The notes under the pieces are model-generated. The model was not told the origin of the DNA. It searched no databases and saw only the letters and a program-made list of their open reading frames with translations. This document shows, piece by piece, positions 17,924-64,000 of a stretch of DNA of 64,000 nucleotides. Where the stretch lies: NCBI GenBank assembly GCA_964607515.1, contig CAZSKU010000003.1, positions 7,154 through 71,153 of the forward strand. The letters are read 5' to 3'. How positions within the stretch are numbered: position 1 is the first letter of the stretch; each line of letters begins with the position of its first letter. The translations under genes and the position numbers were made by a program. This DNA is from an uncultured bacterium. Lineage in GTDB: Bacteria; Fermentibacterota; Fermentibacteria; Fermentibacterales; JCC-6.

Positions 17924-17933
17924 TAACCCCCTC

Positions 17934-18743: not shown

Positions 18744-18759
18744 GTTGTCATCCCATCCT

Positions 18760-32396: not shown

Positions 32397-32699
32397 TTAA
32401 CAGGGTTCGACTATGAGAACCGGGTCGTCCGGATCGTAGGCCACAACCTTCGCTTCGGCGCCGGAAGCCAGCGGGGAGCCGGACCTGCACCACCAGAGTT
32501 CCCCCCTGATCTCCATCACCTGCCTCCCCCTGAAGCCCCGGGCTTTTCTGATGATCCCGCATTCCCCGACCATGCCGTCGTAGCCGGTCATTCTGGGGCC
32601 TTTCTGGGCCTTGAGACCCAGAAACAGAAGGAACACCAGTATAAGAAGGACGCATGCGGCGGTGATGATCAAGGCGATCTGGCTCATTCCACCCTCCAA
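32397..32699 (-). CDS. NfeD-family membrane protein (short form)
   Basis: N-terminal TM plus C-terminal OB-like beta domain. The canonical NfeD-stomatin pairing. Confidence 0.7.
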
Positions 32700-48024: not shown

Positions 48025-49547
48025 AGACCACCAGGCGCGCCGTATCCCCCTTCTTCGCCGCGGCCATATTCACCGCGGCCATAGCGGTACCCTCCGCCCC
48101 GGGCGCCGATTCACCTCCGCAGCTTCCCGTTATGCTGGCACTTTCCGCGGGCATTCTCATATCCGTGGTGTTCAACGGGTTTTCCACCTCCGGGACCCCG
48201 CTCTCGGTTTTCCCCTTCATGCTCACCGTTTCCGCGGTCCTTCAGCGCTCCCTCGCGGCGGGGCTGGTGTTCTCGACGGTGGCGGGAGTGGGTTCCCTGT
48301 TCCTGGAGTCCAGGCTCGGGCTGGAAAAATGGCAGGGAAGAAAGGGTTTGGCGGAGATGATCGCCTCGACTCTCCTGCTCTGCCGGATTCTCTCCCTGCT
48401 GGCGGGCATCGGGGAGGAAACGGTTCCGGGCCATTCCCTGGGTGCCGGGCTGGCGATCCTCCCGGTGCTCACAGGTCTGTCGGTGCTGGCCCTGCGGATT
48501 CTGCCGGCCCCCCCGGAACTCCGGACCGGCGGCGCCACAAGGCTTCTTTTCAACCTGCTGCCGATCCCGGTCGCCTTTCCGCTGCTGGAATACATGCCGG
48601 ACTACGGTTCCCTCCCGGTCCCTCTGGCCGGATCGGTGTTCCTGGTGGGGGTGGTTCAGGTCGGCACCTTCCTGCTCAGCTCCAGACGCCGGTCCCTGGA
48701 GAGAAGCATGGAAATGGAAAAGGCTCTGGCGGACCTGACTTCGGCCCTGTCCTCCGCCGGCAACCGGGCGGAGGTTCTTCGAATGGTGGCGGATGAACTG
48801 CTCCGGGGCAGCGGTGCCACCAGGGTTACCGTCACCCACGACAACCTTTCCGTATCACTGCCTGTACAGCCGTCGCCTCCGGGATGCAGCGTGAGCAGGG
48901 ACGTCCAGGGACTGAGAGCCGTGCTGGAGTTTCCGGTTATGCCCCTGGTCAGCCCGGAGAGGGTGGATGCATTCCTGACCAGAACCGGGGTGATGCTGCA
49001 GTGGATCACCGTGAGCGAGACCATCACCCGGGAGACATGGGAGAGCGTCGAGACCCTGGTGCTCTCTCTGGAGCGAACCGATGAGAAGGTGGCGGACTTC
49101 AGCAAGAGGGTTGCCCAGACGGTATCCGGCCTGGCTGAACACCTGGGTTTCGACAGCTGGACCGTTCATTCCCTGAGGATCGCTTCGCTGCTCCACTCCG
49201 GCTCAGGAGCCGTTTCGGGAAGCCTTGAAAGGGACGACTCCGAACCGGAATCCCCCGGTATCTCCCGGATCACCCTGGACGCCATGAAGTACCAGGGAGA
49301 GTGCTGGGACGGTTCGGGCGCCAGGGGGCTTCGGGGGGAGGACATTCCCATGGCCGCCAGAATACTGGCCGTGGGAATAGGCTGGGAAAAGGCTTTCACT
49401 GCCGGAGGCGTCAGGGAAGCTGAAAAGGCCATGAGAATAGGAAGCGGCCTGCTCTACGACCCTTCCCTGGCGCTGGCCCTGACCGAGTTGAAACGCCGGA
49501 CGGCCCCGGAGGAGCCGTCCGGCGTGTCCGTCAGTGGTCGATGGTGA
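48018..49547 (+). CDS. Membrane-anchored degenerate HD-GYP-like protein (catalytic HD and GYP residues not conserved)
   Basis: TM-rich N-terminus. C-terminus aligns with the preceding gene but reads 'HSLRIASLLHSGSGA' and 'CWDGSGARGL' where HD...DGSGYP is expected. ATGGTGA overlap with the upstream gene. Confidence 0.55.
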   Translation: MVKTTRRAVSPFFAAAIFTAAIAVPSAPGADSPPQLPVMLALSAGILISVVFNGFSTSGTPLSVFPFMLTVSAVLQRSLAAGLVFSTVAGVGSLFLESRLGLEKWQGRKGLAEMIASTLLLCRILSLLAGIGEETVPGHSLGAGLAILPVLTGLSVLALRILPAPPELRTGGATRLLFNLLPIPVAFPLLEYMPDYGSLPVPLAGSVFLVGVVQVGTFLLSSRRRSLERSMEMEKALADLTSALSSAGNRAEVLRMVADELLRGSGATRVTVTHDNLSVSLPVQPSPPGCSVSRDVQGLRAVLEFPVMPLVSPERVDAFLTRTGVMLQWITVSETITRETWESVETLVLSLERTDEKVADFSKRVAQTVSGLAEHLGFDSWTVHSLRIASLLHSGSGAVSGSLERDDSEPESPGISRITLDAMKYQGECWDGSGARGLRGEDIPMAARILAVGIGWEKAFTAGGVREAEKAMRIGSGLLYDPSLALALTELKRRTAPEEPSGVSVSGRW

Positions 49548-52077
49548 GCATTCCCTCGCTGTAGACCTCGAAACTCCCGTCCAGCGTCGGATCCGAAAGC
49601 ACGCCGTAGATGTAGTAGCTGCCCTCCGGCACCCCGCTGCAGTCCCACAGGTAGTCGCTGAGGTAGTCCGGGCACTGGATGTCGGACGATATGGGAACAA
49701 GTCCCCCCGAAGGATCGGTGTCGGTGTCGTAGTACAGGTCTACGGTTCGCCCGGAGGGCCCCACCGAATACCACTCCAGATTGTAGCTGTCGTCCGCGGT
49801 GGCCCCGGGGGGCGGCGGTGAGTAGAATGACATCCAGAGAGGTTCCCGGTCGATGGTCAGAGTGCCTTCGCTGTAGTCGGCAAGGGTCTGCTGGGGGTTT
49901 TCCAGCTTCGCGTAGATGTAGTAGACCCCCTCCGGGGTGGCGGAGCAGTCCCAGGAGTATTCGAACTCGTCCCACTGGATGCCCCCGGTTATGAAGGTCA
50001 TTCCGTTCCCTGGATCCGTGTCCACATCGTAGTAGAGGCTCACAGTGCCTCCGTAGGGAGTATCGGCTGCCCACTGGACGGTGTACTCGGTCTGGGCATA
50101 GGCCCCCCAGGGCGGCGGGGCGGTGACGATGATGTAGCTGTATTCGTGGGTGACCGAGAGGGTGCCGTCGCTGTAGTCAGCCGCGAAACCGTCCGATCCT
50201 GGATCGGGTCTTCCCAGGGAGGGATCGTATATCACCGCGTAGACGTACCAGTCGCCCTCGGGGACCATGCTGGTGTCCCACAGGTAGCTTCCGGTGTTGG
50301 GCAGCCCCTCGGCGATGGGGTACAGCTGGGAGGGGTTGTTGTCGCTGTCATAGTACAGGGCGATGGCACTGCCCGAACCGCCTGCCGCGGTCCACTGCAC
50401 GGCATAACTGCTGTCCGCGGAAGCTCCTTCCGCCGGAGGCGCTGTGACTGTGATGCTGTAGCCGGAGTGGTCAACCGTCAGGGTGCCCTCGCTCCAGGCG
50501 CTGCCGGAACCCTTCAGATCCCGTGGATTCCGCTGCCTGGTGTCGGTCACGAAACCGTAGATCCAGTACACACCTTCGGGAACGTCCGAGCAGTTCCAGT
50601 TGAACTGCCCCGAGTTCGGGGTGCCCGCCACGATGCTGTGCAGGGTTCCACCGGGCTGGTTGGTGGTGCTGTAGAAAAGATACACCCAGGTGGATCCATA
50701 GGGGGCGTCGGTGTCCCACTGCAGCAGGTACTCCTCGTCCGCCGAGGCTCCTTCCGGCGGTGGAGCGGTGAAGGTGAAGGTGTACTCCTGCCCGTGGACG
50801 ATGCTCACTGCGCCGGCGCTCCAGTCACTGCCCTGGCCGTCGCTCTCCAGGGCGGCGAACACGAACCAGTCGCCCTGGGGAACCATTGAGGTGTCCCAGA
50901 GGTGCTCCCCGGTGTTCTGCACCCCGGAGGCTACGGGATACAGGGGCGCTCCGGAAGTGTCCGCGGCGTAGAACAGCGACATCGTCGCTGAACTCGGTGC
51001 ATCGGACTCCCATTCGACCAGATAGCTTTCATCCGCCTGGGCCCCCTCCTCCGGAGGCGCCGTCACCGTGACGTAGAACTGGGTGTCGTGGGCGATGTTC
51101 AGGGTTCCCTGGCTGTAGTCCGAGGCCAGGATGCCCCGGCACGCTCCACCCACGGGGGCAGCTCCGCCCCGGGCCCCCTTGGCCGGGGACATGAGCGCGG
51201 CGTAGACGTAGTATGAGCCCTCCGGCACGTCGGAGCAGTCCCAGGTGTAGTAGCCGTCGTTGTACAGGTTCTGGGCGACAGGTTCGAGCCCTTCGGAGGG
51301 GTCGGTGTCAGTGTCGTACCAGAGGGTCACCGTGGCCCCGGAAGGAGCTTCGCTGAGCCACTCGACGGTGTAGTAGCTGTCGGCGGACTCCCCTCCGGCT
51401 GGTGGTTTCTCGACTGTAATCCAGGGATCCTCCCCGTGGTTGACGTACAGGGTTCCCAGGCTGTACCCAGAGGCGGTCTCCTCCCCGTCGGTTATCTCGG
51501 CCCGGACGAAGTAGAATCCGTCAGGGACCTGCGAGCAGTCCCATAGGTACTGCCCGGTATCTTCGAGCCCCGAAGCTATCTCCGTCAGCCCCTGGTCCGG
51601 AAGGGTGTCGGTGTCCATCCAAAGGGTCACCGTTCCCACCTGGAACCCGGAAGAAACCCACATAACCGTATACGATCCGTCCGCCATGGCGCCCTCGGCG
51701 GGAGGGGCGGTCACCGTTATTCCGGGCTGGCCCTGGCTGTGGTCCACCGTGAGGGTTCCGTCGGAGTAGTCCGAAACCGCCTCCATTCCGCTGGTGAGCA
51801 CGGCCCTGACGTAGTAGTCGCCGTTGGGGACGGCCGCCAGGTCCCATTCGAAGGCTCCGGACACCGGCCGGTCCCCGGATATAAACTGCTGCCCTGAGGG
51901 GCTCTGGACGGTGTTGTAGTAGAGAGCCACCGAACCGCTGCCCTGGCCTGTCCACTCCACGGTGTAGGAGTCCGAGGCGGAAGCTCCCTGGACCGGTGGC
52001 GCGGTGACCGTCACCGCGAGCCCTCCGGAGGGTCCCGAGGGGTCGTCCCCGCAGGAAAGCAGCAGAAGGAACAGCAT
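49531..52077 (-). CDS. Large surface lipoprotein (848 aa) built from eight ~100-aa tandem repeat domains
   Basis: Lipobox 'MLFLLLLSCGDD'. Eight repeats each carry 'VTAPP-EGA-AD-SY-V-W ... LYYD-D ... Y-WD-S-VP-G-YYVYA ... GTL'. The ORF's first 91 codons are rejected. Confidence 0.7.
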   Translation of the reverse strand: MLFLLLLSCGDDPSGPSGGLAVTVTAPPVQGASASDSYTVEWTGQGSGSVALYYNTVQSPSGQQFISGDRPVSGAFEWDLAAVPNGDYYVRAVLTSGMEAVSDYSDGTLTVDHSQGQPGITVTAPPAEGAMADGSYTVMWVSSGFQVGTVTLWMDTDTLPDQGLTEIASGLEDTGQYLWDCSQVPDGFYFVRAEITDGEETASGYSLGTLYVNHGEDPWITVEKPPAGGESADSYYTVEWLSEAPSGATVTLWYDTDTDPSEGLEPVAQNLYNDGYYTWDCSDVPEGSYYVYAALMSPAKGARGGAAPVGGACRGILASDYSQGTLNIAHDTQFYVTVTAPPEEGAQADESYLVEWESDAPSSATMSLFYAADTSGAPLYPVASGVQNTGEHLWDTSMVPQGDWFVFAALESDGQGSDWSAGAVSIVHGQEYTFTFTAPPPEGASADEEYLLQWDTDAPYGSTWVYLFYSTTNQPGGTLHSIVAGTPNSGQFNWNCSDVPEGVYWIYGFVTDTRQRNPRDLKGSGSAWSEGTLTVDHSGYSITVTAPPAEGASADSSYAVQWTAAGGSGSAIALYYDSDNNPSQLYPIAEGLPNTGSYLWDTSMVPEGDWYVYAVIYDPSLGRPDPGSDGFAADYSDGTLSVTHEYSYIIVTAPPPWGAYAQTEYTVQWAADTPYGGTVSLYYDVDTDPGNGMTFITGGIQWDEFEYSWDCSATPEGVYYIYAKLENPQQTLADYSEGTLTIDREPLWMSFYSPPPPGATADDSYNLEWYSVGPSGRTVDLYYDTDTDPSGGLVPISSDIQCPDYLSDYLWDCSGVPEGSYYIYGVLSDPTLDGSFEVYSEGMLTIDH
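49580..52030. repeat. Intragenic tandem repeat region (~300-nt period, eight copies, diverged at DNA level)
   Basis: The periodicity is seen in the translated protein. Codon-level divergence between copies argues for old, selected repeats rather than recent slippage. Confidence 0.6.
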
Positions 52078-52103
52078 GGAAACCGCAGCCGGCAGCCTTC
52101 GGA

Positions 52104-55004
52104 TCACCTCGACACCTCCCCGGACAGGTCGTGGAGAGGTATCACGACCGGGTTGTCGAACCTGGGCGTCGGAGGCCCACCCCCGGCGGCGGACGACGGG
52201 TCGCCGGCCCCCGGGACGAAGCCGCCGGGCGACACGCCGTTTATAGCGCCGTGGGTGATGTTGGACAACCAGGTATCCGAGCTGAAGAACCTGAGCCCGT
52301 CGATGTTCCATCCGCCTTCGGTGTTCGCGGAGTTGCTCAGCATGCGCCACCGGAAGATCACCTTCCTTCCGGCCCCGAACACCGGAAGGTTGTCAACCCG
52401 GTAACGGTAGTAGCCCCATCCCGAGGATATGCCGGAGGTGGTGAGCACCGGATGCCATGTTGAGGGGGCCACGTTGCCGAATTCCGCCACCTCCAGGTAT
52501 CCGTAGTCCTGGTCGGACTCGAAGCGGGGACAGGCGTAGAACTCGACGTAGGCGTAGGTGTCGTAGTTGTCCAGGGTGTAGTGCATGGGAGGGGTGATCA
52601 GAGCGTTGTGCTGGCTGTTCTCGTACCGGTAGTTCCACCAGCGGTCGGACCAGTACCCGCTGTACATGTCGTTCCCGGCCCAGTTCTGGCCGTCGGGGGT
52701 GGAAAGCGGGTCGTACGATCCGCCGGTTACCTTGGTGTAGGCCATCCAGTCGGCCATCTCGTAGACCTGCATGTTCCAGATTATCTGCGGCCAGTCGGCC
52801 CCGGGCCTGCTCCGGGTGTAGTCCACCTCCCAGCCGGTGTTTGACGAGTTGCCCACGGTGCCGTAGTTGAACCTCAGACGTACCTGCTTGCCGGCGTACT
52901 CGGTGATGTCTATGACCGAGAAGTTCCACATGGTGCCCGATGTGCTGCCGGTCCAGCCCGGCTCCATTTCCAGGGCCGGAACCGCCGCGGTGTAGTAGCC
53001 CCAGTAGGGAACGATGAGACGCCATGTTTCGCCGTTGTTCTCGGTTATCTTCACGTTGCATCCGTCCCCCTGGCTGCCGAAGCTGTACCTGTGGAAGAAA
53101 GCCACCGCCAGTCTCTGACCCTCGGCGTAGGATGACAGGTCAATCACGGGACTCTGCAGCCACGCCCTCGTCGGAGTCTGCTGATAGCTGCCGCTTCCTG
53201 CGGTGGCGTAGCACCAGCTGCCTGAGTAGGCGGCGTGGTTCGATGGAATCCATTCGTCGGTGGTGTAGCCTGGCCAGGGTCCGTGGGACCATCCGGCCAT
53301 GCCCCATCCCATCTCCTCGATAGCTATCTGGTCGCAGGCTATTCCCCTGACGGGCATCGGCTGGTCGCCCCTCTGGGCGAAGCCGATGAGGAACGAGTCG
53401 GTGAAGGGTATTCCGGCCTGCTGGGCGGCCTGGGTCAGGTCCACCGTGGCCTCGGTCCAGCCGGGAAAACTCTCCGGGGCTGCGAGGATCCTGTGACTCA
53501 TGTCCCAGTAGCCTTCGCTGCCGGTGGAGACCACCACGTTGTCTATGCTGATTCCTCCGTCGCCGGTGGGGGAGACGGTGCAACCGGTTCCCTGCTGGGC
53601 GAACACTATCCGGGTGTTGGCAAGATCGTAGCCCTCGGGGATCAGATCGGAAAGGTTGATAACCACCTGGGACCAGGACCCCGGGGGGTACGCCCCGGGA
53701 TTGAGAGCCACCTGGGCCAGCGGAGTGCTGTTGATCCCCCCGGGCCCCATGATTCCTACGAAATCGTTGGCGGTGGTGATGTCGCCCCGGTTGCACATGT
53801 CGAAGGTCAGGGCGATGTCCGAACCCGCATAGGCGGAGAGGTCCAGGGTCGCCATCACCCTGTTGGTGCCGGTGTAACCCTGCCGTCGAGTGTCGAGGTT
53901 CAGGTAGGGACCAGTGGCGGGGAACTCTTCGGTCACCTGAACCCTTCCGTAATCGTTGGTCCAGAAGGTCCAGCTCCTGGGAAAACCGTTCCGGAAACCG
54001 CTGAAGTCCTCGTTGAGCACCTCCACCTGGCTGTCGGGCACCCATACCGGAAGGAAGACGCCGTCCTCGTAGTCGAGAAGGTCGCTGAACTCCCTCCAGA
54101 AGAAATGGAGCCGCAGCTCATCGCTCCAGGTGTATTCCGACAGGTCCACCCGCCAGATGGCCATCTGGGTGCTGTACCCCTGCCGGTGGCAGTCCAGGGC
54201 CAGACAACTGGCTCCCTCAAAGGCCTCCGGATCGGTCCAGCGGCGGATCCTTCCGTAGCCGTCGTCCTCGATCCACAGCTGCCAGTCGGCGTTCCAGCTG
54301 ACCGGATCCTCGAAGTACTCGGTGATCACGGGAACCCACATGTCTCCGGCCTCCATGAAGTCCTGAAAGGCAAAGCTGCTGGCGACCTCGAAGCTCTCCT
54401 GGAAGACCGTGTTCTGGTAACGGGACCCGCCGTCTTCACCGTATGAGGCGAACAGGTCCCGGAGCATCGCCGGGTCGCCGGCGGCGGCCAGGTTGTACGG
54501 GGAGACGCTTCCGGAAACCTCCGCCCCGCCCGGGGAGGAGAGGGTGTAGTCGATGCGCCTCACCAGTGCCGGTTCCGCGACCCTGTTCCCCGAGGCATCG
54601 AAATAGTCGAAGACCAGCTCACCCGGAAAACCGGGATGGACTTCCCGGCCCGCGGCGTCGCGAACGGTGACCGTTCCTCCGGCGGACATCACGGTGATGG
54701 TGTCCTCGGGGCCGAAGGCTTCGGGGGCGTCCAGGTTGGCCACCACGGTAAGTCTGTGGTTTTCGGATGCCAGTACCGGGCACCAGACACCGGGAAACAC
54801 GTTGCCCATGTAGCCGGCGTTCGACAGGAGCACTTCCAGTCGGGCCGCGACCAGTCCGGCGTCCGCCTCCGCCGCCTGTCTGGCAGCGTTTTCAGTGGCC
54901 CGGCCGGTCCCCTGGATGAACAGGTACAATCCTGCCAGGACCACACCCAGAAGGACCATGGCCAGCAGCCCCTCCACCAGGGTGAATCCCTTCTTGGTTC
55001 TCAT
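52104..55004 (-). CDS. Giant (966 aa) type IV prepilin-signal protein: PilW-like minor pilin fused to adhesin-like C-terminal modules (MAM/choice-of-anchor-J-like)
   Basis: N-terminus 'MRTKKGFTLVEGLLAMVLLGVVLAGL' is a class III prepilin cleavage/methylation motif (G|FTLVE). The remaining ~900 aa are beta-rich, with 'GGWNIDGLRFF' near the C-terminus. Confidence 0.75.
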   Translation of the reverse strand: MRTKKGFTLVEGLLAMVLLGVVLAGLYLFIQGTGRATENAARQAAEADAGLVAARLEVLLSNAGYMGNVFPGVWCPVLASENHRLTVVANLDAPEAFGPEDTITVMSAGGTVTVRDAAGREVHPGFPGELVFDYFDASGNRVAEPALVRRIDYTLSSPGGAEVSGSVSPYNLAAAGDPAMLRDLFASYGEDGGSRYQNTVFQESFEVASSFAFQDFMEAGDMWVPVITEYFEDPVSWNADWQLWIEDDGYGRIRRWTDPEAFEGASCLALDCHRQGYSTQMAIWRVDLSEYTWSDELRLHFFWREFSDLLDYEDGVFLPVWVPDSQVEVLNEDFSGFRNGFPRSWTFWTNDYGRVQVTEEFPATGPYLNLDTRRQGYTGTNRVMATLDLSAYAGSDIALTFDMCNRGDITTANDFVGIMGPGGINSTPLAQVALNPGAYPPGSWSQVVINLSDLIPEGYDLANTRIVFAQQGTGCTVSPTGDGGISIDNVVVSTGSEGYWDMSHRILAAPESFPGWTEATVDLTQAAQQAGIPFTDSFLIGFAQRGDQPMPVRGIACDQIAIEEMGWGMAGWSHGPWPGYTTDEWIPSNHAAYSGSWCYATAGSGSYQQTPTRAWLQSPVIDLSSYAEGQRLAVAFFHRYSFGSQGDGCNVKITENNGETWRLIVPYWGYYTAAVPALEMEPGWTGSTSGTMWNFSVIDITEYAGKQVRLRFNYGTVGNSSNTGWEVDYTRSRPGADWPQIIWNMQVYEMADWMAYTKVTGGSYDPLSTPDGQNWAGNDMYSGYWSDRWWNYRYENSQHNALITPPMHYTLDNYDTYAYVEFYACPRFESDQDYGYLEVAEFGNVAPSTWHPVLTTSGISSGWGYYRYRVDNLPVFGAGRKVIFRWRMLSNSANTEGGWNIDGLRFFSSDTWLSNITHGAINGVSPGGFVPGAGDPSSAAGGGPPTPRFDNPVVIPLHDLSGEVSR

Positions 55005-55066
55005 TCTTCGCCGCCTTTCCAGGAAACAGTGATTGCCGATTCTATCATAATGTCATCCGATTCCCT

Positions 55067-56413
55067 TCAGAAATCCTCCTCCGGCACGTCCATTAGCCAC
55101 GAGACCGGTGTCCACTTCCATACCTGGGGAAACCCCGGCGGATGTCGGGACACCAGTCCCGGATCCATGGCGATGCCCAGGGTGTAGCCGGTGCTTCCCG
55201 AAGAGGTCCAGGAGAACATGCCCGTCGCCAGCCCGCCGTGAATGGCCACCCTGGCGGGATTCCCGGGATACGTGTTGCTTCTGGGCCTGAACCTGCCGGT
55301 TGGAGCCGCCAGAAAGGCTCTGACCATGAACGATCTGTCGGTCTCTATATCCCAGGGGGATTCCCAGTCCTCCCCCCCGATGCAGTCCGGGTCTGTTTCG
55401 ATCACTATGTCCCCCAGGGATACCAGCCCCAGGGGGCCTCCCGCGCCGGCCAGGGCTCCCGTGATGCTCCCTCCCAGCACCAGGTCTCCGGCGCTGAAAA
55501 TCGTGAGGGGAGCGGCGAGGGGGCTCAGGGATTTCAGAACCGTGCCGCTGTAGCCTCCGGAGAGCTGTATGCAGTTCACGCCCCTCAGGGAGAGGGTTTC
55601 CGGGGGAGACTGGATTCCCCGGCGGAAAATGGCCCGGCTGCCGTCCAGAAGCACCCTGGATGCGCTCACGGAAACGGCCCCCTGAAGGCTCGCTCTCAGA
55701 TCGAGAGCCGCCTGCTGCATGTCCACGGGTTCCTGGTTCATCCTCCATGATGGTCTGCCCCGGTTGTGTCTGGGCCACGGCCGCACCCAGGTGCGGCTTC
55801 CCTCGGGGTGAGGAACCCGTGCCATGCCCACGTCCGAGAAACAGACGCCCCCCCGGGAGGTGACGCTCACCTCGTACAGCCATGGGTCGTCGGAGGAGTC
55901 CGGCGAGAAACTGTCGAAGTGGATCGTTCCATTGGAATGCACGGGTCCGTCCACCATGGTCCCCGTGGTGAAGAAGCCCGAAGGGATGTCTCCGTTCACC
56001 GCCAGGGCGAAGCCCGAGAGGAACCTTGGCACCGCCCTGACGATGATCCTGTACTCCTGGGACCTGTAGGACCCCGTGCTTCGGATTTCCGCGGCTCCGT
56101 TGGACGTGGCCGGGTCGCCGGCGGGAAATGGGTGCACCGCGACCGTTACGGTGGAACCGTCAGGCAGGTCCAGCCCTTCGGGGAAAATATCGAAGGGAAC
56201 CCCCGGAAGCGGATCCAGGCCCGCCAGGTGATGCAGGGCAAGGTTCACCCCGGACTCCGCTGCGTAGGCCGCAGCCATCCGGTCGCGCCGGAAGACCGCC
56301 GTATTGACGCTGCTCCGGAAGTAGGCCCATGCTCCCAGCACAAGGATCATCATAACCGCGGCCACCGCGATGACCATGGCCAGCGCCATGCCCCGGCTGG
56401 TTCCCCTTCTCAT
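55067..56413 (-). CDS. PilX-N-domain minor-pilin-like protein (449 aa)
   Basis: 'MRRGTSRGMALAMVIAVAAVMMILVLGAWAYF...AAESGVNLALHHL' resembles the PilX N-terminal domain. Start set at the internal ATG 56413. Confidence 0.7.
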   Translation of the reverse strand: MRRGTSRGMALAMVIAVAAVMMILVLGAWAYFRSSVNTAVFRRDRMAAAYAAESGVNLALHHLAGLDPLPGVPFDIFPEGLDLPDGSTVTVAVHPFPAGDPATSNGAAEIRSTGSYRSQEYRIIVRAVPRFLSGFALAVNGDIPSGFFTTGTMVDGPVHSNGTIHFDSFSPDSSDDPWLYEVSVTSRGGVCFSDVGMARVPHPEGSRTWVRPWPRHNRGRPSWRMNQEPVDMQQAALDLRASLQGAVSVSASRVLLDGSRAIFRRGIQSPPETLSLRGVNCIQLSGGYSGTVLKSLSPLAAPLTIFSAGDLVLGGSITGALAGAGGPLGLVSLGDIVIETDPDCIGGEDWESPWDIETDRSFMVRAFLAAPTGRFRPRSNTYPGNPARVAIHGGLATGMFSWTSSGSTGYTLGIAMDPGLVSRHPPGFPQVWKWTPVSWLMDVPEEDF

Positions 56414-56430
56414 AACCTTCACCGGAGCCT

Positions 56431-57936
56431 CTAGTAGTTGTTGAACATTATCAGACTGTCGTTCAGCGCCGGATCCTCCGTCCAGTAGAGAGTGTGCCAC
56501 CGGCCGTTGTTGGGGAAGTACGGGGGATGCATGGTCATGAGCCTGGTGTCGAAGTACACCTGGATGTCATGCCCGGTGCTATTGGTGCTGGTGTACCCCT
56601 CCTCCTGGATCATGTACCCCCCCACTATCGTCAGTTCCCCCCCGGGGTTGGGGAAGTAGTACCCGTTCTGGTTGTAGCTTCCGCTCAGGATTTGAGACTT
56701 CAGTTCACCGTCCAGGGCCAGGAGCACTGCGTCCACCTCGATGCTCTGGTTGGTGCTTATGCTGAAGCCCTGGTTCCAGTTGGTGTGATTCATCGGGTGG
56801 GCTATCAGTATGTCGCCGTTCACCGACATGAGCCCCAACATGATGTCGTTGTCGGGGTCCAGCGGGTCGTTGTTCTGGTAGAAGAGGTTCCCCGCCAGGC
56901 CGATGTTGCCCATGGTGCCGATCGAGAGCGGAATGCTGAGACCGTCCTCCTGCAGCATTCCGTAGCTCCTGATGTAAACGTTTTCATTCGGGCCCAGAGC
57001 CAGCCAGACGGCGTTCTTCGTGTACTCGGAGAGGGCGTACTTCACCACCGGCGACAGGGAGTTGAGCCTTACCATGAGGGTATCCCGACGGATGAGAATC
57101 CTCATGTTGTTGGCCACGCTGTCCCCCGACAGGTAGAGACCCCCGGTCTGGGCTGCGGTCCTGACCGACGTCCAGTCCAGTTCGTCGCTGCCGAAGGGGA
57201 TAGGTTCGGCGTTCAGCTCGAACCAGGGAACCCCCATCCTGTGCCTGTTTATGGGCTGCATCTGAAGGTTGCCGATTTCCGGTCCGGTGGCCTGCACCGA
57301 GCTGAAGCCCGAGGTTCCGTACAGGTAGTAGGGCGCCGTATTGGTGAAACTGTAGAAAAACGGGTCGTTGCTGTGGCCGGAGGAACCGCTGTAAACGCAT
57401 ACCGGTCCGTTGGCGTAGAAGGGACCGTCGAACTTGTAGCCGTCGCCGTAGTAGCCCGAGGTGCTGGGATTATCCATAAACACGCTGAAACGGGCTACGT
57501 TCTCGGGCATCACCGCGGTGCGCAACCCGTAGGTCAGCAGCCCTCCGGTGCCGCTGATCCCGGCTATCCGCCCCAGTGATCTCACCTCGTAGGCGTTGGC
57601 CGAAAGGACCCGGTCGTTGAGGTCGTTGGGGTCCACCGCCACCTTGGCCACCCCCAGGGGCGCGGGAAGGTCGTACCAGTCGTTGCCCTCGCCGCCCAGG
57701 AACCACTGGGGCTCCGTGCCCTGGGGAACGTCTGCTCCGCCCATGATCATGTGAATCGCCAGGTTGACTCCGGACTCGGCGGTGAGCCTGACCTGAATCC
57801 TCTCCCTGGCCCAGGTCTGGGACCGCCCGCTGGAGCGCAGGTAGGTGTAGGCGGCCCCGGTAAGGATGATCAGGACCAGCGCCGATATGACCACCAGGGC
57901 CAGCGCCGATCCCCGGGAGCGGTGTGTCGTCCGCAT
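56431..57936 (-). CDS. PilX-N-domain minor-pilin-like protein (501 aa), paralog of the downstream gene
   Basis: 'MRTTHRSRGSALALVVISALVLIILTGAAYTYL...TAESGVNLAIHMI'. The ORF's upstream 123 codons are rejected. GAGG lies 6 nt before the ATG at 57936. Confidence 0.7.
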   Translation of the reverse strand: MRTTHRSRGSALALVVISALVLIILTGAAYTYLRSSGRSQTWARERIQVRLTAESGVNLAIHMIMGGADVPQGTEPQWFLGGEGNDWYDLPAPLGVAKVAVDPNDLNDRVLSANAYEVRSLGRIAGISGTGGLLTYGLRTAVMPENVARFSVFMDNPSTSGYYGDGYKFDGPFYANGPVCVYSGSSGHSNDPFFYSFTNTAPYYLYGTSGFSSVQATGPEIGNLQMQPINRHRMGVPWFELNAEPIPFGSDELDWTSVRTAAQTGGLYLSGDSVANNMRILIRRDTLMVRLNSLSPVVKYALSEYTKNAVWLALGPNENVYIRSYGMLQEDGLSIPLSIGTMGNIGLAGNLFYQNNDPLDPDNDIMLGLMSVNGDILIAHPMNHTNWNQGFSISTNQSIEVDAVLLALDGELKSQILSGSYNQNGYYFPNPGGELTIVGGYMIQEEGYTSTNSTGHDIQVYFDTRLMTMHPPYFPNNGRWHTLYWTEDPALNDSLIMFNNY

Positions 57937-57944
57937 CTCCTGCC

Positions 57945-60900
57945 TCACTTTCCACCGGCGGTACGGCCGAAGAATTGAATGTTGTCCAGGTTCCAGCCGC
58001 CCCGGACTCCGAAGACGCCCGAGTCCAGAACGAACCTGATGTAGTAGCAGAGGTAGGAGGGGTGGTCGTTGAAGTGCTGGGTCAGGTTGATGGTCTCGTA
58101 CTGCCAGTTGTTGTCGTAGAAGCCGTTGTAGGTTCTCACGGTGATCCAGTCGCCCTCCGTCGGAATCTGTTCGGGGTCGGTGCCGAAGGCCAGCTGCACG
58201 TGAGCCAGGTCGTTGGTGGCCAGCCGGAGGCAGCGGAAGAACCTGACGCTCACCGTGTCGTAAACGGCCGCCTCCTCCATGGGGTAACCGCTTGAGGCGA
58301 ACCACGCCCAGGAGTTGTTGTTGTAGTAGCCGTCGGTGGTGAGGTCCGTCCCCGCGACCATGTTAAGGTTAGCGGGAAGCAGGGCCGGATCCACCGCCGG
58401 GAAGAACAGGGGCGCCCCGATCTCCCAGTCGTTTCCGGTGCCACCGGAGGTCCAGGTGACTCCGCTCCCCAGTTCCATGTCCTCGCCGGTGTAGATGGCC
58501 TCGCAGTCGCCGTAGTTGTAGAGGAAGGTCATGGGTACGTTCTGGCTGAACTGGGTGCCGTCGTCGTGGATCAACACGGTCTTGCCGCCGATATTGACCC
58601 GCAGCGCCGGTCTGGTGGTCATGAGGTTCAGAAAGGTGGGCGGCGAGGCCAGGCTCTGGGCCGACCTGCAGGCATTGGTGATCTCCCCGTGGACGAAGTT
58701 CCCGGAAGGACCCAGGGGGGGCTGCACCGTGCGCACCTTCACCACCAGGTTCATTCCCGCGGGAAGGAAGTAGCTTGGACTCACGGGGATGGTCTGCCAC
58801 TCCTCCAGGTTGTTCAGGGTGTACGGGCCGCTGTAGGCGTGGAACAGGCTTTCGGTGTTCAGCATGCCCCCGGAGGGGAAGCTGGTCAGGTCCGTGGCGC
58901 CCAGGTACACGTCCAGCTGCCCGAAGGTGTACTCGGGCACCCAGGTCTTCTTGAAGGCGATCTCCGTAATCTCGTAGCCGTTGATGGTGCATTCCGCAAG
59001 AAAGTCGTCAAGGTACCATCCGGTCTGGGTCACCCCGGCGTCGGAGAAGAACACGAACCGGAACCTGACGCTCTCCCCCTTGTAGGGGTCCAGGTCCACG
59101 TGCTCCATGAACCAGCCCCTGCTCCCGGAGAACACGCTGCGTCCGTTCACGGTGTGGCTGTACGCCAGGCCGCTCTCCGGGCCTAGGTCCGTCCATGGTC
59201 CCCCTGAAACGGACACCTGGACGTAGCCGTAGTCCACCCCGGTCTGCATGCTCAGGGCGTGTCTGAAGGACAGTTCTGGGTCCACCGCCTCCAGGGGCAC
59301 CGAGAACTCCGGCGTGGCGAGCCAGCAGTCGCTGTTGTTGCTGTAGGAGCCTGGATTGTTGGCGAAGAGCGACCACATGAAGTCCAGGGGGTTGGCGGGA
59401 TTCTGCCTGACGCTCCAGTCGTCCACCCCGCCGGGGAAGAAGCCATGGGACCAGCCGGGGATGGTGAGAATCTGTTCTATGATCCCCACCTCGAAGTCGT
59501 CCCAGCTTATCCCGTGGGTGTTCCAGGGGCCCGTTCCTGACTGGCTGAGTACCACTCCGAGAGAATCGTCGAACTCCATTCCGTGGTTCCTCAGGGCTGC
59601 GCTCAGGTCCAGGGCCAGGGTGTTCCAGTCCGGGCCGGCCGACGGAGTCCCTATCCGGGTGTATATGGTGTCGGAGGCTCCGGCTATCACAACCACGTTG
59701 TCCAGGCTTATCCCCCGGTTGCCCGTGAAGTCCGTGGCCCTGCCGTTGTCGTACTGGCCGAAGACGATGTACAGAGGGTTCGGTGGAGTGCCGGAAATGG
59801 AGAAAGTGGTCGAGCGTTCGTGCCACTGGTCGTCGCTGTAGGATTCGGGGGTAAGTTCAGCCGCCGGCGTGACCGGCCCCTCAATGACTCCTGTGGAGTT
59901 CCAGCCGATGAAGTCGCCGGATTCAGCCACCGGATCGTAGGGATGGTCGAGGTCACCGTGGTCGTGGAACCTGTAGTTCACGGTGAATTCTGTGTTGCTT
60001 CCCAGCCCGGTGGTTGGAACCTCTATCATCATCCGCACCCGGCCGTAGGTGTTGTCGGTCCTGCTGTCCAGGGTTGCGAATCCGCCGTCCCCCTGCCAGC
60101 CGTCGGGGCTGTGGATACGGCTTCTTCCGTAAAGGTCCCCCCAGAAGGTCACGTCGCCGGGCGCCAGGAACACCGAGTTGAAGTCCTCGGTGAGCAGGAC
60201 CTGGGGCGAGCCGGAGAGGTCGATGAAGAAAACGCCGTCGTTGAGGCCCACGGTCTCCAGGGAACCGGTCAGGGTGGCCACCTTCAGATAGATGTCGTCC
60301 ACCCAGGCGCTGTAGCCGGTCATGTCCATGAAGGTGCCGGCCACGTTCCTGGTCTCCGCTCCGAAGTCGAGCCTCTGCATCCTCAGGGTTTCATCCACTA
60401 CCGATACGCTGCCCATGGGGCCCAGAGGCATCATGGTCCAGGCGAGCGCCTTGGCGGCGAAATCGTCGGAGTGGATGGGAATCGAGTCGGGCATGATCTG
60501 GGGGTTGTTCAGATCGTCCTCCCACAGGACAACGTTGGTGGACTGCCCGCTCTCTCCCTCGAAGTTCTCCTCCGCTGTTATGGGATCCCCCGGAGTGCCG
60601 CCGCCGCCGCTCCCTCCCAGGGCCCAGTAGAGTACGTTGTAGAAGAAGTCGAGCCCGTCGCTGGAGTAGGTGTTGGCGGAAGGCAGCCCGTAGAGCACCC
60701 GACGGACCGGCAGGAACTCGTCCCTCACGCACACCAGCGCCGGCACGTCTCCGGGAATACTGTCTATTGAGGTGATGTTGGTGGTTTCCAGGGACAGGTC
60801 CAGCAGGTAGTTCATCACCCCTGGAGCCGGGAACATCTCGAAGGTGTCGGCGTCGGGCTGGGCCGATGGAATCTCATAGGGGAACTTGTGTATCTGATGG

Positions 60901-61889
60901 TCGTGCACGACCTTGAAACAGGTCTCGTAAAGGGATGAGGTCATTGGGGTAAGCCCCATGGAGAAGACCAGGGACGCGTCGTCCGGATCCAGGCAGATGA
61001 CCGGGCAGGGGATCGCCTGAAGGGCGCCGCTCATTCCGGAGTGATAGAGAGAGCCGCCGCTGGTGATATCCCTGAGGATCACCAGGTCAATCTCGTTGCT
61101 GACGTAATCGTAGGTGGGCAGGGCATCGTCCGCCAGGGGAATGACCTTCAGCCCCCAGTACTCCATAAGAAGGATCATGGTGTACTCGCCCGGGGTCGGG
61201 GTGAGGGAGTCGGGCTGTCCCGCCACGTTCATCACCACGTTGCCCTCCAGGGGAGGCGGCGGAATGAACGACGGGTCTATGTCCCTGTATACCCCCAGGT
61301 TTCTGGGGCTGATGGTGGTTCGAACCGAGGTCTGGTAAACGTTGCCCATGTAGGTGTCCTGAAGCACCAGCCTCACCCGGATGTGCCTCACCGCGTCACG
61401 GTCCTGCAGGCTCAGGGGCTGGGTGAAGACGTTGCCCGTCTCGCTCAGGTACTCGAACTGAAGGCTGATGATGTTGTGCCCCAGACGGCGCTGCATGGAG
61501 CCGTTGTCGGTTATGTACACGAAGCCGTCCGTTCCCAGCAGCACGTTCCGGTGTTCGTCGTCATCCACCTGTCCCCAGGGAGCCTCGTAATCTGCGTAGA
61601 ACGAGAAGCTTCCCGGTTCGGTGGTCTCAACCGGGTGCCAGAGGTCTCCGTCTATCCCTCCGTGGGGCAGATAACCGGCCCATATAACCTCGTCGGCAAT
61701 CTGCTCCAGGGCGAGCCTTCCGGCGGTGGCCAGCTCGTTCTGCCTCCGGCTGAAGTGGAACTGCTGCATTCCCTTGGTGAAGAAGAGGAAAACCGCGGCG
61801 AAAATCACCCCGAGGACGCCGATCACTATCGCCAGCTCCACCAGGGACATTCCCCGAAGCCGGCGGTTGCCTGATTCACTGAGCCTCAT
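57945..61889 (-). CDS. Giant (1314 aa) type IV prepilin-signal protein: PilW-like minor pilin fused to repeated MAM/choice-of-anchor-J-like beta-sandwich modules
   Basis: 'MRLSESGNRRLRGMSLVELAIVIGVLGVIFAAVFLFF' prepilin motif (G|MSLVE). Downstream modules end in 'GISLDNVVV', 'TGWYLDDFLAEC' and 'GGWNLDNIQFFG'. Confidence 0.75.
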   Translation of the reverse strand: MRLSESGNRRLRGMSLVELAIVIGVLGVIFAAVFLFFTKGMQQFHFSRRQNELATAGRLALEQIADEVIWAGYLPHGGIDGDLWHPVETTEPGSFSFYADYEAPWGQVDDDEHRNVLLGTDGFVYITDNGSMQRRLGHNIISLQFEYLSETGNVFTQPLSLQDRDAVRHIRVRLVLQDTYMGNVYQTSVRTTISPRNLGVYRDIDPSFIPPPPLEGNVVMNVAGQPDSLTPTPGEYTMILLMEYWGLKVIPLADDALPTYDYVSNEIDLVILRDITSGGSLYHSGMSGALQAIPCPVICLDPDDASLVFSMGLTPMTSSLYETCFKVVHDHQIHKFPYEIPSAQPDADTFEMFPAPGVMNYLLDLSLETTNITSIDSIPGDVPALVCVRDEFLPVRRVLYGLPSANTYSSDGLDFFYNVLYWALGGSGGGGTPGDPITAEENFEGESGQSTNVVLWEDDLNNPQIMPDSIPIHSDDFAAKALAWTMMPLGPMGSVSVVDETLRMQRLDFGAETRNVAGTFMDMTGYSAWVDDIYLKVATLTGSLETVGLNDGVFFIDLSGSPQVLLTEDFNSVFLAPGDVTFWGDLYGRSRIHSPDGWQGDGGFATLDSRTDNTYGRVRMMIEVPTTGLGSNTEFTVNYRFHDHGDLDHPYDPVAESGDFIGWNSTGVIEGPVTPAAELTPESYSDDQWHERSTTFSISGTPPNPLYIVFGQYDNGRATDFTGNRGISLDNVVVIAGASDTIYTRIGTPSAGPDWNTLALDLSAALRNHGMEFDDSLGVVLSQSGTGPWNTHGISWDDFEVGIIEQILTIPGWSHGFFPGGVDDWSVRQNPANPLDFMWSLFANNPGSYSNNSDCWLATPEFSVPLEAVDPELSFRHALSMQTGVDYGYVQVSVSGGPWTDLGPESGLAYSHTVNGRSVFSGSRGWFMEHVDLDPYKGESVRFRFVFFSDAGVTQTGWYLDDFLAECTINGYEITEIAFKKTWVPEYTFGQLDVYLGATDLTSFPSGGMLNTESLFHAYSGPYTLNNLEEWQTIPVSPSYFLPAGMNLVVKVRTVQPPLGPSGNFVHGEITNACRSAQSLASPPTFLNLMTTRPALRVNIGGKTVLIHDDGTQFSQNVPMTFLYNYGDCEAIYTGEDMELGSGVTWTSGGTGNDWEIGAPLFFPAVDPALLPANLNMVAGTDLTTDGYYNNNSWAWFASSGYPMEEAAVYDTVSVRFFRCLRLATNDLAHVQLAFGTDPEQIPTEGDWITVRTYNGFYDNNWQYETINLTQHFNDHPSYLCYYIRFVLDSGVFGVRGGWNLDNIQFFGRTAGGK

Positions 61890-61903
61890 CGTCTTCACCC
61901 CCC

Positions 61904-62272
61904 TTAGAACAGGATGCTGAGGCTGGTGGAATCGGCCCCTTCGGGGCCGTTCCAGGTGACCCGGCATCTGACGAGTTTCGCCGCCGGGTACTCCGAATAG
62001 GGTGTGGAGATGACCACGACCCTCTCGAAACCCTCCGGAAGCACCTCCAGCGGGCCGGCGCCGTCGGGCATGGAAGCCACGTCCAGGGTGCGCATCTCCT
62101 CGAGCTTCTCCCGGCAGTACTGAAGCCCCTTGGTCATGAGATCCATCTCGTTCGAGCTTCTGACGATGTGGAAGAAGAACACCGCGATTCCCGCCACGAT
62201 GATGGCCAGCAGAATGGACGCGATGACCACTTCCATAAGGGTGAAACCGCCGCTGCCGCGGATTCTGTTCAT
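61904..62272 (-). CDS. PilV/GspI-like minor (pseudo)pilin
   Basis: 'GSGGFTLMEVVIASILLAIIVAGI' prepilin motif, ~120 aa. Confidence 0.7.
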   Translation of the reverse strand: MNRIRGSGGFTLMEVVIASILLAIIVAGIAVFFFHIVRSSNEMDLMTKGLQYCREKLEEMRTLDVASMPDGAGPLEVLPEGFERVVVISTPYSEYPAAKLVRCRVTWNGPEGADSTSLSILF

Positions 62273-62640
62273 GGACAGGCCTCCTGACTTCTAACGCTGA
62301 ACTCCCTTGACAACTCCACAGAAATAGAATCTCCCCTGAAAACCCTGACCGAAAGGAGCCGGGTGTGGTCGCCGGTCCAGATCAGGGATGTTCTGACTCC
62401 GTATCCACGGCCCATGATGGTATCCTCCCTCTGGGCCGTGAAGGGTTCCGGAAGGGGCTGCATGGCCTGGATCTCCTGCGCCTCCAGGGTCGCCAGGGTG
62501 AGAGCGTCGGAGCGCATCTCCAGATTCCTGCTTCCCCGGAAGAAATAGCGCAGCGCCATGGCCAGCACGCCCAGCACGAGCACCATCACCAGGCCCGCCA
62601 CCACCACCTCCACCAGGGTGAATCCCCTCCTCTTCATCAT
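62269..62640 (-). CDS. FimU/GspH-like minor (pseudo)pilin
   Basis: 'MMKRRGFTLVEVVVAGLVMVLVLGVLA' prepilin motif, ~125 aa. Confidence 0.7.
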   Translation of the reverse strand: MMKRRGFTLVEVVVAGLVMVLVLGVLAMALRYFFRGSRNLEMRSDALTLATLEAQEIQAMQPLPEPFTAQREDTIMGRGYGVRTSLIWTGDHTRLLSVRVFRGDSISVELSREFSVRSQEACP

Positions 62641-64000
62641 CTGCCGGGCCTTTCCCGCTGGGCGAACACCCTCCATTCGCCGGGTCCGTCGAAGATCAGC
62701 AGAGTGTACACCCCCGATCTGACGATCCTCTCGCCGGTGCTCCTGGAGTTGACGGTCTGGGCGAGACCGTCGCCGGACAGCGGGTTGAACACCGCCAGGA
62801 ACTCCCCGGGGGAAGCGGAGAAAAGGTCCACGTCAGCTCCGTCACCGTCGCCCCAGGTGTACGGGCCGTTCTCCAGCAGGACGGTGGAGTATCCTCCGCC
62901 GGCTGCAAGCAGCGCCCGGCCTTCCGATACTCCCGCCACTCCTGACACGCTTCCGTAGAAGGCCCCCTCCCATGGCAGGGAAAGGGCGCCGGCGGGTGTG
63001 AACTCGCCGAATCCGTCGTGGTTGAGCCTCGTCCACAGAGTAACGCCTCCCGGCAGTATCCATCGGCCGCCCAGACCCAGGCTGCCCTCCACGGAACCCC
63101 AGGCGCAGAGAAACGCGTCCGGAGAGGGAGACCCCCGGTACAGACCCGAGGAGGTGAGACAGACCAGCGACCGGGGACCGGCCCAGGCGATGTCTTCCCG
63201 GCCGTCCCTGTTAAAGTCGCCGAAGAAGGCATCGTTGACGGGGGGGGCAAGGGTGAAGGAGCTGGGAGCCCCCGGTTCCCCGAAGACCCTGCCCGAAGGG
63301 GTGACCAGGGGACAGGTGCCCGGAGGGGATATGAGCCTTCCGGTTGCTCCTTCGGAAAGATCCACCAGAGTTCCGAGGTTGTGACCGTCGCTCACCGCCA
63401 GCAGGGGCTCCCCGGGGTCGCCCCCGAAGGTTATCACCGAACCGGGACCGACCCGGCCGAGCCCGGTCTCCACCGTCCGGACGACACCCTCCCGGTTTAC
63501 CACCAGCACGCTGCACGATTCCCCCGTACCAAAGACGAGCACCGCCCCGTCGGCTCCCTGCCACTGGGCACGGCACGCGCCGGTCAATTCCCTTTCTATT
63601 CCCAGCCGGAAGCTCCCTATGCGCTCCCCTGAGGCTCCGGAGAAAACCGTCACGGTATGCCCGTCATCGGGGGTGACGGCGAAAATGGATTCCCCGGAGG
63701 GAACCAGGACCGGCGCCGATTCGCCTCCCACGGGAAATCCCGCGGTGCGGGGAGGCGCTGGCTCCGAACCGCCCACCGTAAGGGTGGTGGTTACGCCCCC
63801 CAGCTGGAAGCACCTGACGGCGCCCCGTTCCAGGGGACCGCCCATGGAAACCTCCAGCATCAGAGCGTCCAGGGCTCCCTCCTCGGTGAGCCCCATCTGG
63901 ACTTCCTCCTCCCGGCGGAGCTGGTCCGAGACCATCCGGTCCAGCATGAAGAACAGGATCCCCACCGCCATCATGACGATCATGGCCGCGGCCACCGCTA
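62637..64000 (-). CDS. Membrane protein with FG-GAP/VCBS-like repeat, first gene of the pilin-like operon; start at 63995 (ORF-track first ATG), 5' extension beyond the window edge not excluded
   Basis: Hydrophobic N-terminal segment 'MAAAMIVMMAVGILFFML'. 'FFGDFNRDGREDIAW' is an FG-GAP-like motif. Beta-propeller-like Gly-rich body. The ORF-track first ATG is at 63995; an upstream start beyond the window edge cannot be excluded. Confidence 0.45.
   Translation of the reverse strand, partial: AVAAAMIVMMAVGILFFMLDRMVSDQLRREEEVQMGLTEEGALDALMLEVSMGGPLERGAVRCFQLGGVTTTLTVGGSEPAPPRTAGFPVGGESAPVLVPSGESIFAVTPDDGHTVTVFSGASGERIGSFRLGIERELTGACRAQWQGADGAVLVFGTGESCSVLVVNREGVVRTVETGLGRVGPGSVITFGGDPGEPLLAVSDGHNLGTLVDLSEGATGRLISPPGTCPLVTPSGRVFGEPGAPSSFTLAPPVNDAFFGDFNRDGREDIAWAGPRSLVCLTSSGLYRGSPSPDAFLCAWGSVEGSLGLGGRWILPGGVTLWTRLNHDGFGEFTPAGALSLPWEGAFYGSVSGVAGVSEGRALLAAGGGYSTVLLENGPYTWGDGDGADVDLFSASPGEFLAVFNPLSGDGLAQTVNSRSTGERIVRSGVYTLLIFDGPGEWRVFAQRERPGR

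Follow-up and report, generated by a model that had tools for sequence, protein, structure and literature searches.

A 1314-residue candidate modular type IV minor pilin encoded in a conserved pilin cassette of an uncultured Fermentibacterota bacterium

The gene, its start codon and the encoded domains

The subject of this study is a gene on the minus strand of a 64,000-nucleotide (nt) stretch of DNA from an uncultured bacterium of the phylum Fermentibacterota (contig CAZSKU010000003.1; this whole stretch is called the window below), whose product, hereafter the target, carries a prepilin N-terminus followed by a long series of predicted domains. In a six-frame list of open reading frames (ORFs) the gene appears at 57945..61967 (minus strand) with 1340 amino acids (aa), but a preliminary description of this DNA had preferred the internal start at ATG 61889, which yields a protein of 1314 aa. 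The local sequence agrees with that choice: the TAA at 61906-61904 is the stop codon of an upstream 122-aa prepilin gene (61904-62272, same strand), ATG 61889 lies 14 nt past it and is preceded by a GGGGGG ribosome-binding site, and the 1340-aa ORF would run 64 nt into the upstream prepilin gene in a different frame. Because of this TAA, the region GGGGGGTGAAGACG and ATG 61889, and because the longer ORF overlaps its neighbour, the 1314-aa reading is the correct one; as judged from the sequence, ATG 61889 is the true start. The features of the gene are listed here; two AlphaFold2 (AF2) models were computed from alignments of 26 sequences each, and their confidence is given as the predicted local distance difference test (pLDDT).

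61890..61903, minus strand: ribosome-binding region GGGGGGTGAAGACG, read from the sequence, between the upstream stop and ATG 61889
61851..61889, minus strand: leader peptide MRLSESGNRRLRG, aa 1-13, basic and ending in Gly-1, with a predicted prepilin-peptidase site (alignment of 21 orthologues)
61302..61850, minus strand: pilin module, aa 14-196, with Met+1, Glu+5, alpha1N, helix and sheet to TTISPRNLG (AF2 and Foldseek)
60609..61244, minus strand: class-I glutamine-amidotransferase-like (GATase1-like) alpha/beta domain, aa 216-427 (AF2 pLDDT >90 and Foldseek)
59466..60545, minus strand: three family-specific beta-sandwich modules, aa 449-572, 573-738 and 739-808 (AF2 all-beta model)
58983..59465, minus strand: MAM/choice-of-anchor-J (COA-J) jelly-roll, aa 809-969, ending in GWYLDDFLAEC (PF20773, NF038128, 4yu5)
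58461..58982, minus strand: beta-sandwich module, aa 970-1143, with the lowest conservation among the beta modules (AF2 model)
57948..58460, minus strand: C-terminal MAM/COA-J-related module, aa 1144-1314, ending in GGWNLDNIQFFGR (hhalign to 809-969)

Starting at ATG 61889 exposes a class III (prepilin) signal: the N-terminus reads MRLSESGNRRLRG/MSLVELAIVIGVLGVIFAAVFLFF, with the prepilin junction at MRLSESGNRRLRG/MSLVE, and a short basic leader is present with Gly directly before the hydrophobic segment. The preliminary description had recognised a prepilin N-terminus here, quoting the segment GMSLVELAIVIGVLGVIF (residues 13-30), and conservation bears this out, in that Gly-1, Met+1 and Glu+5 are invariant wherever orthologue sequence covers them. 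Gly-1 occurs in 15/15 orthologue sequences whose gene call includes the leader, Glu+5 (E18) in 21/21 orthologues spanning 39-95% identity, and Met+1 in all 21 but P0002, an N-terminally truncated gene call in which the +1 position is absent. When the 21 orthologues are aligned, their leaders differ (30% identity) and are all basic, while alpha1N, a stretch of ~20 hydrophobic residues, is 75% identical across the family; the Pfam N_methyl model (PF07963) matches 15/21 family members at E<=0.05, with a best E of 2.7e-7.

Some orthologues are already auto-labelled 'prepilin-type N-terminal cleavage/methylation domain-containing protein'. The public gene calls P0001, P0006, P0009, P0018, P0025 and P0002 begin at Met+1 or later and come without the leader; at locus L001, which is 95% identical, the leader MRRRESGNRRLRG is encoded immediately upstream of the called start (L001 9962-10000). 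The public annotation is corrected in this respect, with truncated starts masking the prepilin signal.

In the AF2 model of residues 1-480 (pLDDT 75.7), the alpha1 helix spans 58 residues (16-73) and lies against a sheet with strands at 87-193 and the conserved TTISPRNLG at its end; a low-confidence, partly proline-rich linker (196-215) comes next. A comparison of the N-terminal fold had been proposed in the preliminary description, and residues 1-200, modelled as an alpha1 helix on a beta-sheet, led Foldseek to XcpW/GspJ. Among PDB entries, the pilin module is matched by the full-length pseudopilus model 9a1f_S (E 2.6e-5) and by the soluble-domain crystal structures 3nje_A (E 9.3e-4, TMt 0.50), 5bw0_A (TMt 0.55) and 6utu; because the matched XcpW/GspJ crystal structures lack the transmembrane helix, the pilin match reaches past that helix. 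No other part of the protein is as well conserved as this module (60.5% mean pairwise identity), which also has a profile match to geopilin/PilA N-termini. The module is thus predicted to be shaped, and to work, like the GspJ/XcpW (PilW-like) class, although no family model places it there by sequence.

The next domain, aa 216-427, resembles in Foldseek the GATase subunits 2d7j, 7d97 and 1qdl_B (target-normalised TM 0.63-0.70, E down to 6e-7). The Cys-His-Glu triad was not found in it: a conserved Cys is missing, C299 being confined to the closest subgroup, and the sequence at the elbow is L-D-P-D-D-A. Because the catalytic Cys is not conserved, what is present is the GATase1 fold only and not the enzyme, and judged by its residues the domain is non-catalytic as an amidotransferase. 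With a mean identity of 41%, the domain as a whole is one of the least conserved parts, and yet 46 family members share N221, D254, R273, D304, H331, R396/397 and W422 as (near-)invariant residues; these could form a ligand pocket or support a new chemistry.

Six beta-sandwich modules follow in the all-beta AF2 model. The preliminary description had announced multiple W-x-[IL]-D-[DN] modules in this region, citing the strings GISLDNVVV (726-734), TGWYLDDFLAEC (956-967) and GGWNLDNIQFFGRT (1297-1310); all of these are in the target, and the strict motif occurs twice (958 and 1299), but the string GISLDNVVV has I-S-L-D-N at this place and no Trp. With the motif relaxed to G-[WIL]-x-[ILVW]-D-[DN] there are four sites (726, 793, 957 and 1298), as compared with an expectation of 0.05 from 5000 shuffles, and all four lie at predicted module ends, with modules 573-738 and 739-808 ending in GISLDNVVV and GISWDDFEV, respectively. 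We take this last strand, G-x-x-[LW]-D-[DN], to be probably a structural-calcium or core strand typical of jelly rolls of the carbohydrate-binding module (CBM)/MAM type.

A likeness to MAM/COA-J domains had been claimed for at least three module ends. It stands for 809-969 and 1144-1314, but the module that ends in GISLDNVVV has no detectable profile similarity to these. Residues 847-971 score above the cut-offs of both choice_anch_J NF038128 (38.9 bits, cut-off 30) and InhA-like_MAM PF20773 (34.4 bits, cut-off 26.9), MAM domains are among the fold matches, and 20/21 family members match MAM/choice-of-anchor-J models. When the six beta modules were compared pairwise in hhalign, only 809-969 and 1144-1314 were homologous (96.4%, E 1.2e-9); modules 449-808 had no profile similarity to the MAM modules, and module 970-1143 (39.5% mean pairwise identity) no profile relation to the other modules. 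A simple tandem-repeat origin of all beta modules is rejected on this comparison, which found one related pair only. Module 1144-1314 is present in all family variants and, with 54% mean identity, is second in conservation to the pilin module. An exhaustive phmmer search found relatives of aa 449-808 only within the family and its paralogue (described below), while aa ~810-967 alone links the target to hundreds of multidomain outside proteins. Structural likenesses to the modules comprise CBMs (the chondroitinase CBM 8jiy and CBM4, 22, 36, 61 and 70) as well as MAM domains (RPTPmu, PTPRK, neuropilin), the gingipain cleaved-adhesin domain, Eph ligand-binding domains and reelin sub-repeats.

The MAM domain also accounts for a different label that the family has received. 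The NCBI product name of the orthologue P0015, from Candidatus Sabulitectum, is 'immune inhibitor A', and this name, together with sequence similarity to InhA2 (4yu5), would speak for a metallopeptidase of the immune-inhibitor-A (M6) type. The similarity to 4yu5 is, however, confined to the MAM domain (aa 842-962, E 1.4e-5), neither HExxH nor HxxEH occurs anywhere in the target, and no peptidase domain was found in 21 family members. Because there is no HExxH motif, the name is best seen as carried over from the MAM domain, a misannotation now corrected; an M6 peptidase is refuted at the sequence level by the lack of a catalytic motif or domain, and we regard it as extremely improbable.

The pilin cassette and its surroundings

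The target stands fourth in a minus-strand operon of tightly spaced genes, all in one direction, whose junctions are overlaps of 1-4 nt or gaps of 8-14 nt. The other genes of the operon, and one further pilus gene of the window, are the following.

62637..64000, minus strand: cassette gene 1, truncated where the window ends and 476 aa long in L001 (L001 7784-9214), with the anchor RGAAILIAVAAAMIV and no Glu+5
62269..62640, minus strand: small prepilin MMKRRG/FTLVE, with weak GspI/XpsI-like matches; its start overlaps the stop of gene 1
61904..62272, minus strand: small prepilin MNRIRGSGG/FTLME, with weak PilV-like matches; 4-nt overlap with the previous gene
56431..57936, minus strand: cassette gene 5, 501 aa, read as PilX_N-type; MRTTHRSRGSALALVVISALVLIIL, no Glu+5; 8 nt past the target stop
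55067..56383, minus strand: cassette gene 6, ~438 aa, read as PilX_N-type; MRRGTSRGMALAMVIAVAAVMMIL; weak DUF4900 match
52104..55004, minus strand: second giant prepilin MRTKKG/FTLVE, 966 aa, N_methyl 28.8 bits; three genes downstream of the target
49531..52080, minus strand: last operon gene, 848 aa, with a lipobox-like LLLLSCG and repeated ~100-aa Kre9_KNH immunoglobulin (Ig)-like modules (E 1e-25)
32684..33793, minus strand: PilT/PilU-family type IVa retraction ATPase (TIGR01420 439.6 bits, cut-off 319.1; PF00437), outside the operon

The RGAAILIAV... anchor of cassette gene 1 is read as PilX_N-like, and the protein has a weak FG-GAP match (E 0.004), so that it could be a beta-propeller and hence a PilY1 analogue. 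Genes 5 and 6 have hydrophobic R-G-[SM]-A-L-A N-termini without Glu+5, and the gene 5 family, which is limited to Fermentibacterota, has two members named PilX or PilX N-terminal domain protein (JGI, NCBI). No useful match came from sequence searches of the PDB with the two small prepilins and a neighbouring 498-aa protein. The target is, in sum, encoded beside partner minor pilins that are GspI/PilV-like by weak matches and GspK/PilX-like by our reading.

The first six genes of the operon, in the same order, are found in three further genomes whose target orthologues are 95% (L001), 56% (L003) and 40% (L002) identical, and again, with different flanks, around an 852-aa short form of the target (L004). 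Because the six genes recur even in a different neighbourhood, we consider this cassette the conserved unit, and one that is kept across Fermentibacterota. The second giant prepilin and the Ig-repeat gene are present in the window and in L001, the one close relative covered, and absent from the more distant loci L002-L004. The 966-aa prepilin is paralogous to the target but has neither the GATase1-like module nor module 970-1143; BLASTP aligns the two at E 2e-28 over 459 aa (521-961), in addition to their pilin and C-terminal modules. A promoter and terminator scan of 49000-64000 returned no more sites than shuffled sequence, and no sign of internal terminators.

One could envision that the pilin-like N-terminus serves as a membrane anchor only, the target being a bitopic protein of the envelope that does not polymerise at any stage. 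Processing and assembly are indeed steps that we infer, and the target's motif scores lie under curated thresholds. The invariance of Gly-1 and Glu+5, however, and the fact that the pilin globular domain is the most conserved of all would be unexpected for a plain anchor, and the gene sits among the prepilin genes of a conserved cassette; we find this explanation quite unlikely as compared with a minor pilin.

Directly upstream of the cassette in three genomes, and outside it, lies dprA. Taken as a hint, this immediate adjacency would suggest the DNA receptor of a competence pilus, similar to ComZ of Thermus. Because the whole region (recJ, a helicase, obg) is syntenic in those three genomes, the adjacency carries no specific signal, and the cassette of the fourth genome has no dprA nearby; moreover, the modules are folds of the CBM/MAM type, with no known DNA-binding fold among them. 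The competence link through dprA was rejected on the ground that the adjacency is not conserved, and we hold a DNA receptor to be very improbable.

Apart from the PilT/PilU gene, the remainder of the window consists of housekeeping genes. Because this ATPase gene is in the window, we take the genome to have pilus machinery. The gene stands apart from the other pilus genes and adjoins a Band_7 gene and a BamD/YfiO-like gene. Its presence also bears on whether the target could instead be a GspJ-type subunit of a non-retractile pseudopilus, of a system resembling the type II secretion system (T2SS) or of another type IV filament, acting in the periplasm or at the secretin and not on an exposed pilus. 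In favour of this, the closest structural matches are T2SS XcpW/GspJ, and a neighbouring small prepilin has weak XpsI/GspI matches; because GspJ and PilW share one fold, however, the Foldseek matches cannot separate them. Against a pseudopilus, a PilT/PilU retraction ATPase is present, no GspC/D/E/F/G genes adjoin the cassette, and a 1100-residue binding array makes little sense in the periplasm. The arrangement characteristic of type IVa pili is a stand-alone minor-pilin operon (fimU-pilVWXY1E), and the cassette is such an operon. A pseudopilus subunit is in our estimation unlikely, and the gene content at this locus is better accommodated by a minor pilin of a retractile pilus.

The pilin operon is met at its 3' end by two adjacent, convergently oriented HD_5 (HD-GYP-like) genes (46441-49547, plus strand), which are adjacent to the cassette in L001-L003 as well but not in L004; away from the operon, a PAS-HD_5 gene lies at 9720-11699 (plus strand). 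This arrangement may reflect cyclic-di-GMP control of the pilus. Elsewhere in the window, four tandem genes for PPIC-type peptidyl-prolyl isomerase/SurA-like proteins (15846-20574, minus strand) lie upstream of mfd (TRCF).

Distribution and variation of the family

A word-indexed search of 5.8 billion proteins returned 35 relatives of the target at E <= ~1e-96 and one more through the MAM domain only. All named relatives belong to Candidatus Fermentibacteria, Fermentibacteraceae or Sabulitectum, the last being itself a member of the phylum Candidatus Fermentibacterota, and most are 1286-1319 aa long and align end to end at 39-95% identity. When 1.84 billion cluster representatives were searched exhaustively by phmmer with residues 1-1200, 35 matches reached E<=1e-30, and those to the N-terminal 800 residues were exclusively to this family or to the 966-aa paralogue.

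By BLASTP the family takes three forms: a full form of ~1300 aa, a form of ~1120-1140 aa without residues ~560-733 (the segment missing from P0012 and P0028), and a short form of ~830 aa, in which the pilin module and the GATase1-like domain are followed by a single MAM-like module and the C-terminal one. The short and intermediate forms are constant in pilin, GATase-like domain and last module, and vary in the middle; by mean identity, the GATase1-like domain and module 970-1143 are the most variable parts. Such a pattern is what would be expected of a constant 'carrier' bearing variable 'effector' modules.

A candidate pilus-tip adhesin

The conserved signal, the folds predicted for pilin and modules, the cassette kept across genomes and the PilT gene make it probable that the target is a type IV minor pilin, modular in build and of the GspJ/PilW class in structure, and most likely a pilus-tip adhesin. 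In the mechanism that we infer, which covers processing, tip location, adhesive function and ligand, the class III signal would direct insertion of the target into the inner membrane, and prepilin peptidase would cut after Gly13 and methylate Met14, as the conserved motif suggests. The pilin module would use its alpha1 helix and Glu+5 to associate with both small prepilins and with the cassette's PilX_N-type proteins, and together these cassette pilins, to judge by the operon content and the examples of GspI-J-K and FimU-PilVWX, would form an initiation or tip complex for polymerisation of the major pilin. The extension of ~1100 residues, with its GATase1-like domain and six beta-sandwich modules, two of them MAM/COA-J, would then be displayed at the tip of the filament and form an array that binds polysaccharide, protein ligands or other cells, in a role analogous to that of PilY1, and retraction by PilT would draw cell and ligand together.

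Several observations weigh against this interpretation. On the target itself, the two prepilin models fall below their cut-offs (Pfam N_methyl PF07963, 16.9 bits against a gathering score of 21.2; TIGR02532, 12.8 bits against 16.3), and residue +1 is Met instead of Phe. The pilin module has a pLDDT of 64-84, so that the class assignment is built on a model of moderate confidence, and no T2SSJ, PilW or NCBIfam gspJ model matched the target or the 21 members. For the cassette, no model of Pfam or NCBIfam matched the three proteins read as PilX_N-type, a reading taken from their N-termini and two source names. Prepilin peptidase (PilD), PilB/C, PilM-Q and a major pilin are not in the 64-kb window, and the host phylum, Fermentibacterota, is uncultured. 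In favour of the interpretation, type IV pilus genes have been reported for that phylum, which is described as diderm and non-flagellated (PMC5030696).

Modular pilins as tip-exposed adhesins, or carriers of modules, are an established concept (Raynaud et al. 2021, PMC8179133). The closest parallels are PilB and PilC of Streptococcus sanguinis, with a vWA and a ConA-like lectin module, respectively, which likewise consist of a class III pilin module, a short linker and non-pilus modules, and which, as minor pilins encoded with other pilins, are likewise proposed to act in tip-exposed adhesion (PMC8179133). Whereas PilB and PilC carry one grafted module each, the target carries seven (~1100 aa), and it differs further in its diderm host, its pilin module of the GspJ/PilW class and its GATase1-like and MAM/COA-J modules. 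A survey of modular pilins counted >1,200 proteins in 264 architectures and highlighted as its multi-domain extreme a protein of 860 residues; in the 32 kB part of its supplement that was available to us, neither MAM nor Fermentibacteria is mentioned, which is weak evidence (PMC8179133). In the literature searched, no paper was found in which 'minor pilin' and 'MAM domain' occur together.

Other minor pilins resemble the target in part. GspJ/XcpW and PilW, which give the best structural match, share with it Glu+5 and a setting of GspI/PilV-like prepilins and GspK/PilX-like neighbours, but they are ~200-280 aa long and have no C-terminal extension, as compared with 1314 aa here. CofB and TcpB (type IVb) and ComZ (Thermus) are minor pilins enlarged by beta-rich domains, located at the tip and required for initiation or ligand binding (PMC8179133); in contrast to the target, they are ~350-550 aa long with one or two extra domains of other folds (beta-repeat/H-type lectin; beta-solenoid), and no sequence relation of the target to them was found. 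In size (>1000 aa) and in proposed role, that of a large adhesin with variable N-terminal effector modules on a minor-pilin tip complex, the target resembles PilY1/PilC, the tip adhesin of type IVa pili. PilY1, however, is a non-pilin defined by a C-terminal beta-propeller, whereas the target has a pilin module, and neither the target nor its orthologues have a Pfam match to the PilY1 beta-propeller. The MAM, COA-J, InhA-like MAM and CBM jelly rolls, for their part, are usually met in secreted peptidases, glycosidases and surface proteins anchored by sortase or by the type IX secretion system, a setting different from that of a pilin.

The modular type IV pilin is thus a kind already known, and the target is an extreme example of a known design, no new kind of system; a pilus specialist would see a striking yet expected extension of the modular-pilin idea. 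What is new is the architecture, in which a GspJ-class pilin carries a GATase1 domain that has degenerated and six jelly rolls, of which two are MAM/COA-J, along with the size of the protein, its restriction to one uncultured phylum and the paralogous pair in one operon. The GATase1-like domain (210 aa), the second giant prepilin and the phylum-specific minor-pilin operon go beyond the preliminary description.

A bolder proposal, which we put forward tentatively and consider doubtful, is that a giant GspJ/PilW-class pilin has replaced a PilY1-type tip adhesin in Fermentibacterota. Its tip array would unite modules of the CBM/MAM type with the GATase1-like domain, in which the amidotransferase triad would have gone and a polar pocket (N221, D254, R273, D304, H331, R396/397) would have stayed invariant, and the pilus would act as a retractable 'fishing line' that captures and possibly chemically processes polymers, with two alternative giant tips in the lineage of the window. 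This replacement of PilY1 and the polar pocket of the GATase1-like domain are the points with the most upside.

Modular pilins explain how many functions have come to be borne by simple filaments, and with seven domains and ~140 kDa the target family is an extreme case, hosted by a non-flagellated, fermentative and uncultured phylum that is common in anaerobic digesters. If display at the tip holds true, a pilin-borne route would be able to carry adhesin arrays as large as PilY1, and attachment to polymers, or their capture, would be a core conserved trait of the Fermentibacterota.

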